64,000 nt of DNA from a candidate division WOR-3 bacterium (GTDB lineage Bacteria; Hydrothermota; Tepidihabitantia; Tepidihabitantales; Tepidihabitantaceae): NCBI GenBank assembly GCA_965649295.1, contig CBFGKH010000002.1, forward strand, positions 160,001-224,000, written 5' to 3'. Every line of letters starts with the position of its first letter. Position 1 is the stretch's first letter. This document shows, one piece after another, positions 33,253 through 38,699 of the stretch. The position numbers and the translations under genes were made by a program. The notes below the pieces were generated by a model. The model worked only from the letters and a program-made list of their open reading frames with translations, searched no databases and was not told the DNA's origin.

Positions 33253-33497
33253 AATGGGTTTGGACGGTCGAGGTGAACTACGAAGACAACAGGCACAATG
33301 ATGTCAGAATCCAGGATGCGGGTATCGGCTGGCAGAATGGAGCGGGTTCGGCGACATGAGTTCTGGTATCGGCAATCTGCTATCCTTTGTGTCTCAGTAA
33401 CCGTGGTGGTGAATCCAGGACCGGGCCGAATCGGCGTCAGTGGTGCCGGGCGTGCGGGCCGGTGGAAAGATGGCGTGGTCTGCGCTATTCTCTGGCG

Positions 33498-34796
33498 ATG
33501 TTGACGGTGACGGTGATTGGCGCTGGATTGGCCGGCTGCGAGGCGGCGTTGCAGGCGCGCAGACTGGGCGTGGCGGTGCGGCTTATCGAGATGCGGCCCG
33601 GGCGGATGACCGAAGCGCACGAGACCGGCAACGTCGCGGAGCTGGTCTGCTCGAACTCGCTCAAGTCTGATGAGCCGGGTAATGCGCACGGGCTGCTGAA
33701 GGCTGAATTGCGGCGGCTCGGTTCGAAGCTCTTGGCCAGCGCTGAGCAGGCACGGATTCCGGGTGGCAAGGCACTGGTGGTTGACCGGCAGCGGTTCTCG
33801 GCTGCGGTGCAGGCTGAGCTTGATGCGGCAGGTGTGGAGGTCGAGCGGGCTGAGATCGAGGAGTTGCCAGCCGGCGACGGCGTCACGGTCGTTGCAACCG
33901 GGCCGCTGACTTCGGCAGGGCTGGCAGCCACGCTGGGCCGGGTGCTTGGGGCAGAGCATCTGTTCTTCTATGATGCGATTGCACCGGTGGTGCTGGCTGA
34001 GTCGCTGGACCCGAGTGTCGTGTTTTCGGCGTCCCGCTATGGGGCTGGTAGTGATTATCTCAACTGCCCGCTCGATGAGGCTGAGTATGACCGATTCATT
34101 GATGCGTTGCTCACGGCTGAACTGCATCCGTTGCACGATTTCGAGGCCGGTCATTTCTTTGAGGGCTGTTTGCCGATTGAGGAGATGGCGCGTCGCGGCC
34201 GGCTGGTGCCGGCTTTTGGACCGATGAAACCGGTTGGGCTTTGTGACCCGCGCACAGGCCGGCGGCCGTTTGCGGTGGTGCAGCTTCGGCGCGAGAACAC
34301 CGAAGGTACGATGTATAACCTGGTTGGGTTCCAGACCAGATTGCGCCACTCAGAGCAGGAGCGAGTCTTTCGGCTGATTCCAGGTCTGGGCCAGGCCCGG
34401 TTCTGCCGATTTGGTTCGATGCATCGTAACACTTTCCTTGACGCGCCGAAGTGTCTGCGGCCGACATTGCAGACCAGGGTTAGCGAACAGCTACTCGTGG
34501 CCGGGCAACTGACCGGGGTTGAGGGTTATGTTGAGTCAATCGGGGCTGGGCTGGTGGCAGGATTGAACGCAGCGCGGATTGTGCGGGAGGAGGAGCCGCT
34601 GACATTGCCGGCCGAGATGATGCTGGGCGGACTCCTTTCTTACATCACCACCCCGAATCCTGGTTTCCAGCCGATGAATGCGAACTTTGGCCTGCTGCCC
34701 GCGGTTCGGGCACGAGGCCGGGAGCGGAGGTTGGTTCAGGTCGAGCAGGCGCTTGCTGCGGCCAGTCGGTTTGCCGAGCAGTTCGGGATTGCCTGA
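33498..34796 (+). CDS. trmFO: FAD/folate-dependent tRNA m5U54 methyltransferase
   Basis: VIGAGLAGCEAA, ELVCSNSL, FFYDAIAP, FGPMKPVGL, GSMHRNTF, GVEGYVES, FQPMNANFG. Confidence 0.96.
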   Translation: MLTVTVIGAGLAGCEAALQARRLGVAVRLIEMRPGRMTEAHETGNVAELVCSNSLKSDEPGNAHGLLKAELRRLGSKLLASAEQARIPGGKALVVDRQRFSAAVQAELDAAGVEVERAEIEELPAGDGVTVVATGPLTSAGLAATLGRVLGAEHLFFYDAIAPVVLAESLDPSVVFSASRYGAGSDYLNCPLDEAEYDRFIDALLTAELHPLHDFEAGHFFEGCLPIEEMARRGRLVPAFGPMKPVGLCDPRTGRRPFAVVQLRRENTEGTMYNLVGFQTRLRHSEQERVFRLIPGLGQARFCRFGSMHRNTFLDAPKCLRPTLQTRVSEQLLVAGQLTGVEGYVESIGAGLVAGLNAARIVREEEPLTLPAEMMLGGLLSYITTPNPGFQPMNANFGLLPAVRARGRERRLVQVEQALAAASRFAEQFGIA

Positions 34797-34850: not shown

Positions 34851-36773
34851 CTAGTGGGTCAGAATCAGTTTGGCCTCGGTCTGCTTACCGGCGGAGTTAG
34901 CACGGCAGAAGTAGATGCCAGGCGAGACCAACTGGCCGTGGTCGTCTCGGCCATCCCAGATTGCTGTTCCGGGTTCGAGCTGGCGAATCTGGCGACCGAT
35001 TGCATCACAGATGGTGAAGCCGGTGGGATTAGTAGTTGCAAGCCTGACGGTCTGACCGATGCGGCCAGGATTGGGCCAAGCCTGAATCCGGGCCCGCTGC
35101 GGCTGAGCCGGTATTTCGGCAATCCAGGTGAGCGGATCGTCGGTCACGTATTTGATTGCCCGGCCCGGAGCAAGACGGGCTGCGCCACGATGGTAGGTTC
35201 CGTCAAAGAGGCACTGGATGGCAATCGTGGCGGTCGGGTCCTGGATGCCGACTGTGGCTGAGCCGTAGCCGTTGGTGGTCAGGTATTGGGCGATGAGGAC
35301 GTTGTCGCCGGTAGTAGTGTGGACCGTGGTGTCGTAGATGATGAGCTGGAAGGTCTCCCAGGTGGTGCGCGATGCATAGGTGGGGATGCTGTCGTATTCG
35401 ATAATCAGCCGGTGGTTTTCCGGTTCATGGCGATACCAGATACCGCGGCCTTCAGGCGGATAGAGGTCGTCCCAGTTGAGACAGACCATTGGTGGCATAC
35501 CGGCTGCCGGTAGTGCGGCATTGGTGTAGGTGGCGATGCTGGTACTGCCCGGAGCGACAAAACCGTTGCTGCAGATTGAGAACTGGGTGTAGGTCTGACC
35601 GTAGTAACGCCAGACAAAGCCGGCTGGCAATGGGAAAGTCAGGGTCTGGTCGTCGCCCAAGATGACCTGGGTGCTTGGCATGCCGGCAATCTCAACCCAA
35701 CTGAACTGGGGATGGTTGGGATAGAGCGTGTCACATTCGTCGTAGGCCCAGTAGCGGGGCGGCTGGCGCGGGCCGTCAGGAATCGGGTCCTGAGCGCGGA
35801 TTTCGCCAACCACGACGCGCAGCGTGATGGTATCGTTCCAGGTGCCGGAGATGAGGAGCTGAAGCTCGGCGCTGTGCTCCAGCGGGCAGTTCGGCGCCGC
35901 GGCTAGGCGGAAGGGGGTCGCGGCGTTGTTGCGGGTTGAATCGGGCAGGATGGCAGGATAGGTACAGGTCGAGTCGAGTACGCTGACAAACGGGTCACTC
36001 GTGCGCAGCCGAGCATTGACGACTGTTGCCGGCTGGGTGCCGACATTGCGCAGGCCGATAATATAGCTGGCAGTCTCGCCCGGGTCGAGCTTGCGGTCGT
36101 TGTTGCCGCCGGGCGGCGGGTCGTAGATTGTTCGCTCGCTACAGACGAGATACGGGCCGCTAGCAGTTGAGACTAGGGAGATGTCGTCGGCGAAGACCTT
36201 CGCCGTCGGCGTCCCTCAGCCGGAGTAGGTGTAGCTGTAGAGCGCTACCTCAATCTGGGCGATGTCGCCGGGATTGACGCCCGGCAGGTTCTGGCTGACC
36301 TCGTCAACGACGTTGAGGGTGTAGCGCTGCCAGGCCGGATTGGTGATGCGGTAGAGACTGAGGGTTGGGCTCGGCACCCAGTTGGCATAGGTGGAATAGT
36401 AGTACCGGGTCTCGCCGAGCAGGTTTGAGGCTAGGTCGTAGTAGCAGACGCTGAAACAGGCTGCCGGCCAGCAGGTCGAGACCCCGCCGCTTTCGGCAAA
36501 ACTGGCCCAGAACTCAAGCTGAACAAGCGGACCAGGAACCATTACGGTTTGGCCCAGGCGTGCCCAGCCCGGGTTGTCGTATTGTCGGGTCATCGCCTCG
36601 TAGTCTGGGTCAGGGTGATAGGTGGTCGAGCGGTCGGCTGAGGGCGTGCCAGTGCCGCCGTAGGTGAATGTCCAACCGACCGTCAGCGGTTGTTCAAAGT
36701 CGCCATTGGTCAGCAGATTCTGACCGCCGGCAACCGCCAATAGTAGCGGTAGGAGTAGAATAGTCTTCTGCAA
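34851..36773 (-). CDS. Secreted multidomain protein with in-frame UGA (candidate selenoprotein, 640 aa)
   Basis: ORFs 36216-36773 and 34851-35813 are one frame separated only by TGA at 36216-36218; the 134 intervening codons are open; signal peptide, RBS aaggagg, FlgD/T9SS-like tail. Confidence 0.75.
36177..36218 (-). promoter_or_regulatory. Bacterial SECIS-like element
   Basis: UGA-GGGACGCCGA-CGGCGAA-GGUC-UUCGCCG; apical loop begins at nt 18 after UGA. Confidence 0.7.
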
Positions 36774-36860
36774 GGTGCCTCCTTTTTGGCTGAGTAGATT
36801 CTCGCCTGAATCGGCAATCTAGTCAAGCATCCGAGTGCGACGGGCTTTGGCTGGCCTCCG

Positions 36861-37226
36861 TCAGTCTGGTGCTCGCTTTTCTGGCTGGCGGGCGTCGCGA
36901 ATCATCTCCTCGACACGCTCCTGCTGCGGTTTCTCTTCGGCAATCCGCTGGACATGCTCGAACTCAGCAGCGACCATTGCCCCAAACTCTTCAATCTCGG
37001 CCAGGCAGCGCTTGCCCGACCGGTGGGCAAAACCGCGCAGCGACTCGAGCAGTGATTCGTAACCGCGGTCAGAGGTGTAGCGGGAAAGGACATAGCGGGC
37101 AACAAAGGCACCACAGGCCGCGCACTTGACATAGACACAGGTGTCCTGGCCGGTGCGGACATAGACCAGGTTGGTCATCTGGGTGCCGTGGCAGCGGGGG
37201 CAGCATTCAGCCTTGGCCTTTTCCAT
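36861..37226 (-). CDS. Hypothetical zinc-ribbon protein
   Basis: CPRC...CAAC; RBS aggag; co-oriented behind the SLC13 transporter. Confidence 0.65.
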   Translation of the reverse strand: MEKAKAECCPRCHGTQMTNLVYVRTGQDTCVYVKCAACGAFVARYVLSRYTSDRGYESLLESLRGFAHRSGKRCLAEIEEFGAMVAAEFEHVQRIAEEKPQQERVEEMIRDARQPEKRAPD

Positions 37227-37235
37227 AATTGTCTC

Positions 37236-38597
37236 CTACAGATAGCCGAACAGCTTCGACAGGGCCAGGACCACACCGAGCACGACGAACAGGCCAGCGG
37301 CGCAGACGATAGCGCCAGTTAGGGCCATTGTCCGGACCTTGATGAGGCCAGAGCCATAGGCGATAGCGTTGGGTGGTGTTGATATCGGCAGAATCATTGA
37401 CAAGGAGACTGCGATGCCGGCAGCGAGGACAAGCGGGACCGGATGGCCAGAGAGGCCGGCAACGAGCGGCAGCAGCATTGCAGCGGCGGATGTATTGGAG
37501 ATGAAGGTTGTCACGACGATTGCCGCCAGCATTACGACGCCGGCAAGCAGCAGGGGACTGAGGCCGTCGAGGTGGAGCGAGCTGAGCAGCCAATTGGCAA
37601 GGCCGCTACTACGAATTGCAACGCCAAGCGACAGCCCACCGCCCATCAGGATGAGAATATCCCAGCCGATGCGACCGAAGTCCTCGCTATCGAGGAACCC
37701 GAAGCCGGTGAAAATCAGTGCGGGAATGGTGGCAATCACGGCGGACGGAACGTGATGGAGTTCGGTTGTGAGCCAGAGCAGGACAGTGATGGCAAAGACG
37801 GCGATGATTACCTGCTGGTGCCGGTTCAGCGGCTCACGCCGCGACGGGGGCAGGGCCAGTGACCCAGTTCGGGCTGGGAAGCGGCGTAGCAGCAGCCACC
37901 AGATAAACAGAAAAAGCAGCACGGTCACCGGCAATCCGAAGAGCATCCACTGGCTGAAAGAAATGCGGATGCCCTGTCGAGCCAGGATGCCGATGGCGAT
38001 AGCATTGGGTGGTGAGCCGATAGGGGTGGCGATGCCGCCGATGTTGGCGGCGAACGGAATGCCAAGAATTAGGGCGGTGCGGAATGGCTCGTCGTCAGGC
38101 AGGCCGCGGATGATGGTCAGGCCCATGCCGATGAGCAGGGCGGTGGCGGCGGTGTTGGACATCCACATCGAGAGGAACGCGGCGACAAACATCATCCCGA
38201 GCAGGACCCGGCTGGGCCGAGTGCCAGTCCGTTCGAGAATCAGGCCGGCAAGCAGAGTGTCGAGGCCGAACTTACCGAGTGTCTCGGACAGCACAAATCC
38301 GCCGAGGAAGAGCATGATGACGTTGTCGAAGAACGGAGCAATGAAGACCGCCGGTTCGAGTCGCAACGGGCCGGCGAGCAGGAGCACTTCGAGCAGAACG
38401 ACGAGGAATGAGGTCGAGTAGAGCGGAATTGCCTCAGTGACCCAGAGATAGGCAGCCACGCCAATAATGGCGAGACAGCGCCGAGCCGGTTCGGGCAGCC
38501 CAGGCAGCGGCAGGAAGTAGGCAACAACGCCGCAGAGGAGCGCAGCACCGGCGTGCACCAGCCGGCGCCTGAAGGTTGGTTCGGTGGCGTGGGACAT
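37236..38597 (-). CDS. SLC13/DASS family anion transporter
   Basis: WVTEAIP, LSMWMSNTAA, GGIATPIGSPPNAI, FISNTSAA, PISTPPNAIAY. Confidence 0.92.
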   Translation of the reverse strand: MSHATEPTFRRRLVHAGAALLCGVVAYFLPLPGLPEPARRCLAIIGVAAYLWVTEAIPLYSTSFLVVLLEVLLLAGPLRLEPAVFIAPFFDNVIMLFLGGFVLSETLGKFGLDTLLAGLILERTGTRPSRVLLGMMFVAAFLSMWMSNTAATALLIGMGLTIIRGLPDDEPFRTALILGIPFAANIGGIATPIGSPPNAIAIGILARQGIRISFSQWMLFGLPVTVLLFLFIWWLLLRRFPARTGSLALPPSRREPLNRHQQVIIAVFAITVLLWLTTELHHVPSAVIATIPALIFTGFGFLDSEDFGRIGWDILILMGGGLSLGVAIRSSGLANWLLSSLHLDGLSPLLLAGVVMLAAIVVTTFISNTSAAAMLLPLVAGLSGHPVPLVLAAGIAVSLSMILPISTPPNAIAYGSGLIKVRTMALTGAIVCAAGLFVVLGVVLALSKLFGYL

Positions 38598-38699
38598 CGC
38601 GTCTTTGGCGTAGTCTAGCCAAAGAGTAGCGGCAGGCAAGCAGCGGTTGCTAGAGGTTGGCCTGCGGGTTGTTGGGGCCTCTGGCGAGTGGTGTTCGGG

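Follow-up and report, generated by a model that had tools for sequence, protein, structure and literature searches.

The window analysed here is a 64,000-nucleotide (nt) stretch from a candidate division WOR-3 bacterium (positions 160,001 to 224,000 of contig CBFGKH010000002.1, assembly GCA_965649295.1). It contains two neighbouring open reading frames (ORFs) of 185 and 320 amino acids (aa) on the minus strand, which lie in one frame interrupted by a UGA codon. Judged by sequence comparison, the two ORFs are one gene, and its in-frame UGA very probably encodes selenocysteine (Sec; U in the motifs below). An RNA hairpin resembling a selenocysteine insertion sequence (SECIS) follows the codon. 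The features of the gene itself are as follows.

34851..36773, minus strand: single 640-codon gene, joining the 185-aa and 320-aa ORFs via the in-frame TGA
36773-36771 and 34853-34851, minus strand: TTG start and TAG stop, the ends of the 640-codon gene
36778..36782, minus strand: Shine-Dalgarno sequence GGAGG, 4 nt 5′ of the TTG, read directly from the sequence
36216..36218, minus strand: in-frame UGA, codon 186, motif SG-U-GTP, very probably read as Sec
36188..36205, minus strand: SECIS-type hairpin, stem CGGCGAA/UUCGCCG, beginning 10 nt 3′ of the TGA and encoding A-K-V-F-A

The 185-aa ORF (36773..36216, minus strand) ends ...ALYSYTYSG-TGA. Past the TGA the frame reads GTPTAKVFADDISL... and, in the ORF listing, meets no further stop until the terminal TAG. 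The initial annotation had proposed one frame of 640 aa through the UGA, from a signal peptide to a sorting tail, and this frame is indeed continuous on the minus strand. The reverse complement of 36774-36786 is AAAAGGAGGCACC, directly followed by the TTG start codon; the sequence ahead of the GTG start of the 320-aa downstream ORF, read in the same way, contains no Shine-Dalgarno sequence. The 133 codons that separate the TGA from the earliest start codon in the 320-aa ORF are conserved at the protein level, and in the same frame, in all homologues. Hot-spring metagenome contigs from two studies differ from the window at 21 and 36 positions over ~600 nt spanning the TGA stretch, and of the 40 strain differences listed, 34 are at third positions of codons in one frame, both before and after the TGA.

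These data bear on two alternative explanations of the interrupted frame. A single in-frame stop in an assembly resembling a metagenome-assembled genome (MAG) is often an error, and the TGA might accordingly be an assembly or sequencing mistake, or else the mark of a pseudogene. A sequencing error had been named from the outset as a possible refutation of the Sec assignment; in the independent contigs of both studies, however, the TGA is unchanged with zero indels, the frame is intact on either side, and more than 100 genomes, from several labelled phyla, have this codon at this position. The conservation of the TGA together with the independent contigs refutes this explanation, to which we give practically no credence. 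Alternatively, the UGA could be a true stop, with a secreted fragment of 185 aa made separately from the protein downstream, or a point of regulated truncation; the hairpin would then act as an attenuator or stability element. The public annotation splits the gene in just this way, into a 187-aa ‘hypothetical protein [candidate division WOR-3 bacterium]’ and a ~447-aa ‘T9SS type A sorting domain-containing protein’, with the public C-terminal fragments beginning inside or after the hairpin. Moreover, this genome uses TGA as a normal stop, and some termination is expected at the Sec codon of any selenoprotein gene. Against a true stop stand the conserved 133 codons, the GTG without a Shine-Dalgarno sequence and the third-position differences that continue in one frame across the TGA, and we regard it as very unlikely.

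Usage of TGA elsewhere in the genome is equally informative. The codon ends 430 of the 1149 stop-to-stop frames of at least 300 codons, and it is the true stop of the window gene's own counterpart in two orthologues; SelA, SelB and the neighbours of the window gene have no internal TGA. This usage as a stop excludes a genome-wide reassignment of UGA (translation table 4 or table 25), an explanation which has only the in-frame TGA itself in its favour and which can be given next to no weight.

Conservation of the TGA was followed at increasing evolutionary distance. When 41 related genomes were searched with the read-through protein, all 30 listed matches spanning residue 186 carried a TGA in an otherwise open frame, at identities from 100% down to 35%; 29 of these had one TGA and one had two, in open frames of ~640 aa or more. 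Matches confined to the C-terminal ~430 aa were free of TGA. In 19 of 19 orthologues the TGA falls in the same alignment column (in two it is displaced by two columns, and these two have an insertion of 6 nt), within the motif SG-U-GTPxA[KE]V[FS]ADD, and it is also found in 11 of 11 further paralogues that were fetched. Tryptophan, arginine or glycine at this position in homologues had been set out as evidence that would speak against Sec; none was seen among these sequences, the aligned column holding TGA instead.

A search of 272 species genomes of the phylum identified the Sec-containing N-terminal domain (at E ≤ 1e-5) in 107 genomes and in 47 of 110 genera. The TGA was present in 149 of the 150 matches listed (110 further matches were not listed), and the sole exception ends at residue 121, before the site. 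In a scan of the genome_contigs set, 51 of 51 loci had a TGA 5-8 codons before the hairpin, and the titles of these loci include candidate division WOR-3/Stahlbacteria, Cloacimonadota, Krumholzibacteriota, Eisenbacteria and Thermoanaerobaculales. At E ≤ 1e-3 a profile built from 30 N-domains recovered 312 clusters (50% identity); at E ≤ 1e-10 it recovered 190. By these sequence matches the family comprises no fewer than 312 such clusters, and its members come from candidate division WOR-3 and from MAGs that bear the labels of several neighbouring phyla.

Individual genomes carry up to nine copies. The genome of the window (G000) has four that contain a TGA, on contigs C2 (the window gene), C3, C9 and C11, and one Sec-less paralogue. 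The copy on C3 (~253654, minus strand) is a 1669-aa open frame with the motif EDG-U-TNP and a hairpin stem GGCGAG/CUCGCC; that on C9 (82075, plus strand) is a frame of ~650 aa with DDC-U-MGR; and that on C11 (~6271, minus strand) is a stand-alone domain of ~225 aa which ends ...SGTSAC-U-GLYLAAEVSA and lacks the C-terminal sorting tail. The stand-alone ...SGTSAC-U type is common among the database matches. Family members are often adjacent, either as a ~300-aa form beside a ~640-aa form or as three in a row (G019:C22:20572-22172, G016:C114:2286-3686, G024:C24:4863-6255, G186:C5:76739-82884), which suggests local duplication.

The hairpin reads CGGCGAA-GGTC-TTCGCCG in DNA, with arms at 36205-36199 and 36194-36188 and the loop GGUC at 36198-36195. 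Its conserved part is a 6-bp core, GGCGAA/UUCGCC, and the minimum-free-energy fold of the region adds a lower GGGA/UCCC stem. The perfect 7-bp stem closing GGUC 10 nt after the UGA, extendable below, is thus present on the minus strand as it was first described. The likeness of its AGGUCU apex to the SECIS of Escherichia coli fdhF at a similar distance, also remarked on at first sight, could be made exact. In E. coli K-12 fdhF the TGA is followed by 18 nt and GGTC, inside GCAGGTCTGC; in the window gene it is followed by 17 nt and GGTC, inside GAAGGTCTTC; and the apex is the same, A-GGUC-U. Both genes have an in-frame UGA succeeded by a stem-loop within the coding sequence. The differences are that the fdhF product is an unrelated cytoplasmic molybdoenzyme whereas the window gene encodes a probably exported β-sandwich protein, that the window stem is a short perfect helix of 6-7 bp in which no bulged U was seen whereas the upper stem of fdhF carries one, and that the element of the window family, in contrast to that of fdhF, is nearly invariant in sequence over hundreds of members.

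In the bacterial SECIS (bSECIS) model of Zhang and Gladyshev from 2005, the stem-loop reportedly lies within the ORF immediately after the UGA, with an apical loop ~16-37 nt away and G or U in the first loop positions. The window hairpin agrees with these limits in both spacing and loop, its GGUC beginning 17 nt after the UGA. The bSECIS model is mentioned in section 6 of PMC13188914.

The 2.28-Mb genome contains 230 hairpins with a GGTC tetraloop and a stem of at least 5 bp. These were filtered for an in-frame TGA 12-30 nt upstream and a frame open on both sides, and the top three that remained were the window gene and two of its paralogues. Two further loci combine an in-frame TGA with a GGTC-loop hairpin: G000:C1:283019 (minus strand; 14 codons upstream and 372 downstream) and G000:C2:29289 (plus strand; 91 codons upstream and 423 downstream). 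Either could be a further selenoprotein gene or a product of chance.

Comparison of the hairpin across the family was based on 81 sequences, 71 of them distinct, in an alignment free of gaps around the loop. The 6-bp core is paired in 99.8% of cells, and compensatory double changes occur at four of the six pairs. None of 500 shuffles came up to the real alignment in pairing, in compensated pairs or in covariation score, and sliding the 3′ arm along the alignment destroyed the pairing. At pair 5, A-U is found in 41 sequences, G-C in 27 and G-U in 3, which in protein terms is K..F, E..S or E..F; the mismatching combination K..S did not occur among the 71 distinct sequences, although the peptide pattern used in retrieval would have permitted it. 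Further compensations (GCA/UUU, ACA/GCU, UAC/GCG and AGG/CUC) are synonymous or change an amino acid, the first three being synonymous double changes.

Constraint beyond the protein code is also evident at third codon positions within the hairpin, which are fixed (G 69/71, GCG 69/71, G 71/71, GTC 71/71, C 69/71, GCC 69/71), and column 11 is G in 69 of 71 sequences despite the use of five codons (ACG, GCG, GTG, GAG, CTG). By comparison, the two Asp codons just after the hairpin vary between GAT and GAC (39/32 and 26/41). The GGUC loop is invariant in all 71 distinct sequences. The spacing from UGA to loop among the 81 sequences is 17 nt in 29, 20 nt in 43, 23 nt in 8 and 26 nt in 1. Covariation and fixed third positions together demonstrate selection on the hairpin at the RNA level, as far as aligned sequences can, and the comparative analysis supports its behaving as a bacterial SECIS.

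Decoding of fdhF in E. coli requires selA, selB, selC and selD, and all of these are found in the WOR-3 genome, in answer to the question raised with the first description of the locus. The tRNA-Sec scores 72.9 bits against a gathering score of 47, and ARAGORN calls it tRNA-SeC with anticodon TCA. SelA (500 bits) exceeds its curated cut-off in the genome search, as does SelB (345 bits, cut-off 242 bits). Two SelD genes also lie above curated cut-offs, each with one in-frame TGA near the N-terminus. They are located at G000:C1:318451-319377, with the context ...AAG-U-AAKV..., and at C1:355394-356299, with ...CAG-U-ASKL..., and the second directly adjoins selB (C1:356367-358244).

Across the 272 genomes SelA is present in 122. 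Tallied by hand from the per-genome rows, SelA was found in 101 of the 107 genomes that have the family (absent from 6) and in 21 of the 165 that do not (absent from 144); kinship inflates this association, since both features are missing from entire families of the phylum, such as f6 (0/11 in both searches) and f15 (0/14 in both). Among the family-positive genomes without SelA, G022 has SelB and tRNA-Sec, G173 has SelB, and G185 and G223 have tRNA-Sec. The counts show that, at the level of gene presence, the family tracks the Sec machinery across genomes.

Stable hairpins just 3′ of stop codons can, in principle, enhance readthrough, and the hairpin of the window gene might promote insertion of a standard amino acid (Trp, Cys, Arg or Gly) by a near-cognate or suppressor tRNA, giving full-length protein without selenium. 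In its favour, one full-length public protein (P0157, 656 aa) reads Trp at the site. That protein is nearly identical to the product of a genomic locus (L037) whose DNA has TGA at the Trp codon, however, and its Trp looks like the result of automatic translation with an alternative code (TGA=Trp). Readthrough with a standard amino acid is further opposed by the association of the family with SelA, by the invariance of a GGUC loop identical to the fdhF apex, by Sec-less relatives with Cys rather than Trp or Gly at the column, and by the Cys that directly precedes the site in 79 of 111 representatives, which fits a chalcogen pair. We consider it improbable.

Canonical insertion of Sec, dependent on SelB and a SECIS, in a new and large family of probably exported proteins remains the best explanation of these findings, and we place its probability at roughly 0.88. 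Comparison shows the single gene, the conservation of the UGA, the constraint on the hairpin at the RNA level, the link with the Sec machinery and the fold; the actual insertion of Sec, the export of the protein and the pairing of Sec with a Cys are inferred. In the proposed mechanism, SelB carrying Sec-tRNA(Sec) would be recruited by the hairpin, which begins 10 nt 3′ of the UGA; the recruiting element would be the G+C-rich stem of 6-7 bp with its invariant GGUC loop, set within the A-K-V-F-A codons. The UGA would then be read as Sec, and translation would proceed through the domain's last β-strand and a further 454 codons. The signal peptide would mediate passage over the inner membrane, and the C-terminal sorting domain would deliver the protein, via the type IX secretion system (T9SS), to the surface of the cell or into the medium. 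There, Sec and a Cys partner may form a selenylsulfide or a selenolate/thiolate site.

Several observations weigh against this explanation. Taken singly, the hairpin is thermodynamically unremarkable in a G+C-rich sequence: the z-score of its fold is -1.06, and 32 of 200 shuffled sequences match it in stability. Its significance lies in the comparative data, not in the single-sequence fold. An Rfam scan of the region returned no SECIS at E values up to 10, only two unrelated hits at chance level. In the comparative set itself, a peptide pattern that overlaps the hairpin, A[KE]V[FS]ADD[IV]S, served to find 51 of the 81 sequences; the pattern pre-selects part of the hairpin sequence, though neither the TGA nor the combination of paired bases. 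The genomes compared are related, and the counts are accordingly non-independent. Two family-positive genomes depart from the association with the Sec machinery: G168 (96% complete) has no SelA, no SelB above the cut-off and no tRNA-Sec, and G199 (76% complete) has no SelA and no SelB above the cut-off (tRNA-Sec was not searched there). Both selD genes lack a GGUC-tetraloop hairpin with a stem of at least 5 bp, so that the single SelB must accept different SECIS forms, as is normal in E. coli. To judge from the sequences compared, Cys homologues are very few, which is atypical for selenoproteins and reduces the support from Sec/Cys exchange. Finally, the protein's own tail matches the sorting-domain model TIGR04183 (Por_Secre_tail) at 17.7 bits (E 0.0025), below the 23-bit cut-off.

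The encoded protein is modular, with the following parts.

36723..36773, minus strand: probable signal peptide MQKTILLLPLLLAVAGG, residues 1-17, judged by eye
36159..36722, minus strand: N-terminal β-sandwich resembling a carbohydrate-binding module (CBM) and containing the Sec, residues 18 to ~205, from AlphaFold2 and Foldseek
36471..36473, minus strand: Cys101 (TCWPA; Cys84 in the domain model), candidate partner of Sec in a selenylsulfide or as a ligand
35808..36149, minus strand: immunoglobulin (Ig)-like β-sandwich, residues ~209-322, DPGE...RNVG, CARDB-like by eye, from model and Foldseek
35145..35747, minus strand: middle module, residues ~343-542, shared with many probable T9SS cargo proteins of the same genomes
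34863..35078, minus strand: probable T9SS-type sorting domain, residues 566-637, a weak TIGR04183 Por_Secre_tail match

The N-terminal domain (residues 18-209) was modelled by AlphaFold2 as an all-β sandwich with a predicted local distance difference test (pLDDT) score of 94.5 and a predicted template modelling (TM) score of 0.90. Foldseek matched it to β-sandwiches of the CBM4/11/16/61 type and to accessory domains of phage tailspikes (TM 0.45-0.58, E down to 5e-8), and the CBM likeness suspected by the initial annotation holds at the level of the fold. The overall fold is common to CBM4, CBM11, CBM16, CBM61 and the tailspike domains, but the window domain is not a sequence member of the CBM families, and no CBM listed by the search is a selenoprotein. 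No significant match to the domain was found in Pfam, NCBIfam or the sequences of the PDB. When 30 members of the family were compared with Pfam, none rose above threshold, the best being a weak CBM_4_9 match (E 0.026) in one member. The strand signatures ...NGDFE at the N-terminus and ...ADD[IV]SL at the C-terminus are typical of CBM β-sandwich modules, and the window domain carries both; its orthologues begin with a hydrophobic N-terminus followed by Q-[NE]-LL-x-NGDFE.

In model numbering, the Sec position lies in the loop 167-172, between strands 156-166 and 173-185, so that the codons of the final strand follow the TGA, as do those of the most conserved motif of the domain, A-K/E-V-F/S-A-D-D-I/V-S-L. 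A product terminated at the UGA would miss an edge-to-core strand of the sandwich, which adds to the case against a true stop.

The Ig-like domain was predicted in blocks of pLDDT ~82-94 (model residues 10-123); it gave generic Ig-like matches in Foldseek and no match in Pfam. A model of the C-terminal 441 aa is of moderate confidence (pLDDT 68.7), with a C-terminal β-sandwich and, again, generic Ig-like Foldseek matches. PF18962 and PF13860 are found in homologous C-terminal fragments, one of which bears the name ‘T9SS type A sorting domain-containing protein’. SprA (TIGR04189), the only T9SS component searched, was found in the genome with 445.8 bits summed in one frame. The C-terminal ~430 aa (window 34854-36176, minus strand) recur, in each genome, in dozens of frames that are 1000-1700 aa long and contain no TGA, and in paralogues the same module stands behind peptidase domains of the M14, C25 and subtilisin types. 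From this recurrence it would appear to be a display scaffold shared by probable T9SS cargo in the phylum.

The window protein, with its probable signal peptide, head, Ig-like domain and probable sorting domain, matches the architecture of T9SS cargo in Bacteroidota and the Fibrobacteres–Chlorobi–Bacteroidetes (FCB) group, namely signal peptide, head, Ig-like stalk and sorting domain, and differs in that its head is a predicted selenoprotein domain. By its domain content the protein is probably exported through the T9SS, with the Sec domain as its functional head.

The surroundings of the Sec residue differ between subfamilies. Of the best 150 clusters, 112 are represented by gene calls ending precisely at the Sec site, 20 by fragments and 18 by proteins that span it. 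Among the 112 truncated calls, 81 end in Cys and 22 in Gly. The 18 spanning, Sec-less representatives include four with Cys in the Sec column (P0006, P0029, P0033, P0058) and one, P0073, with Cys one column later (GNGC); the other 13 are non-Cys. In the genome of the window, the Sec-less paralogue at G000:C3:202189 (minus strand) has the same 640-aa architecture, and the TGA, Cys101 with its TCWPA motif and the GGUC hairpin are all missing together, making it a natural negative control.

The sequence STCWPAAC in the N-domain, pointed out at the start as holding a possible partner for Sec, is present, and its Cys is residue 101, conserved in 17 of 19 orthologues. The Cys101 column is covered by 111 of the site-truncated representatives. 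Of these, 79 have Cys-Sec but lack the Cys of TCWPA, which is present in 17 (14 of these without a Cys near Sec); four have a Cys of the CxU/CxxU type and 11 have neither. In sequence terms, most members of the family are marked by a Cys-Sec dipeptide and the window subfamily by Gly-Sec with a distant Cys101. The near-exclusivity of Cys101 and a Cys directly before Sec indirectly supports Cys101 as a candidate partner of Sec in the window subfamily.

The position of the Cys-Sec (or Cys...Sec) pair in a surface loop of a lectin-like head suggests a redox-active selenylsulfide, a site for soft metals or chalcogens, or a cross-link resistant to reduction. An exposed redox-active or soft-metal/chalcogen-binding site on the head domain is favoured over a structural staple, as a tentative assignment at best. 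A broader proposal, that this is an obligate-Sec extracellular family in which a lectin-fold head displayed through the T9SS has kept Sec over Cys in nearly all members across several phyla and acts in the extracellular space by way of an exposed Cys-Sec (or Cys...Sec) site, is plausible, although we would stop short of even odds. Its roles could include the capture or reduction of sulfur or polysulfide, selenium, arsenic or mercury, or else a reduction-resistant cross-link in hot, sulfidic, anoxic water. If this is true, these bacteria spend selenium on the cell exterior, and selenoproteomes of the WOR-3 type are dominated by a family invisible to searches based on Cys homology.

The absence of the protein from the classical bacterial selenoprotein families, noted when the locus was first read, extends to a current compilation. 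Table 1 of PMC13188914 (2026) comprises 119 families or subfamilies of prokaryotic selenoproteins, and nothing alike appears in it; most of its families, in the table as it stands, are cytoplasmic or periplasmic redox and metal enzymes, and it has no CBM-fold or T9SS protein. None of the domain models given there (Pfam, NCBIfam or CDD) matched the N-domain in the Pfam and NCBIfam scans. The same survey states that nearly all selenoprotein families have abundant Cys homologues. Its Table 1 does include Cys-Sec families, namely KCU-star, SaoC, SaoL, HgcA, MbdU and the Csac_0668 type, of which several are proposed in the survey to bind metals or organometals, and most members of the window family likewise have C-U. 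The listed families show no sequence relation to the window family in NCBIfam or Pfam and have another fold, whereas export through the T9SS is probable for the window family; its member in the window, in contrast to their C-U, has G-U and a distant Cys. No prior description of the family was found in full-text searches of the literature, although supplementary tables and BSepDB (PMC13326102) could hold unlisted candidates. According to the deep-Sep paper, its method may miss selenoproteins without Cys homologues, and the near lack of Cys forms in this family could be why it has been annotated as two unrelated ORFs.

The family is large and previously unannotated, and belongs to uncultured bacteria of hot springs and sediments. 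If its selenoprotein nature is confirmed, at least 312 sequence clusters, with several copies per genome, would be added to the selenoproteome of poorly known phyla, and a systematic split-gene annotation would be corrected. The range of places where bacterial selenoproteins act would widen to a probably T9SS-secreted protein with a lectin-like fold. Confirmation would also provide an unusually clean natural SECIS, in which an RNA constraint dictates two amino acids (K..F versus E..S), and a testable question on useful extracellular selenium chemistry in anoxic thermal habitats.

The genes that flank the 640-codon gene at this locus have no obvious functional link to it. Directly upstream on the same strand lies a 121-aa Cys-rich protein (CCPRCHG...CAACG; window 36861-37226, minus strand) without a Pfam match, and beyond it a 467-aa permease of the CitMHS/Na-sulfate-symporter type (window 37236-38639, minus strand), also on the same strand. 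The convergent downstream neighbour, at 33387-34796, is a gene of the GIDA family (TrmFO-like).

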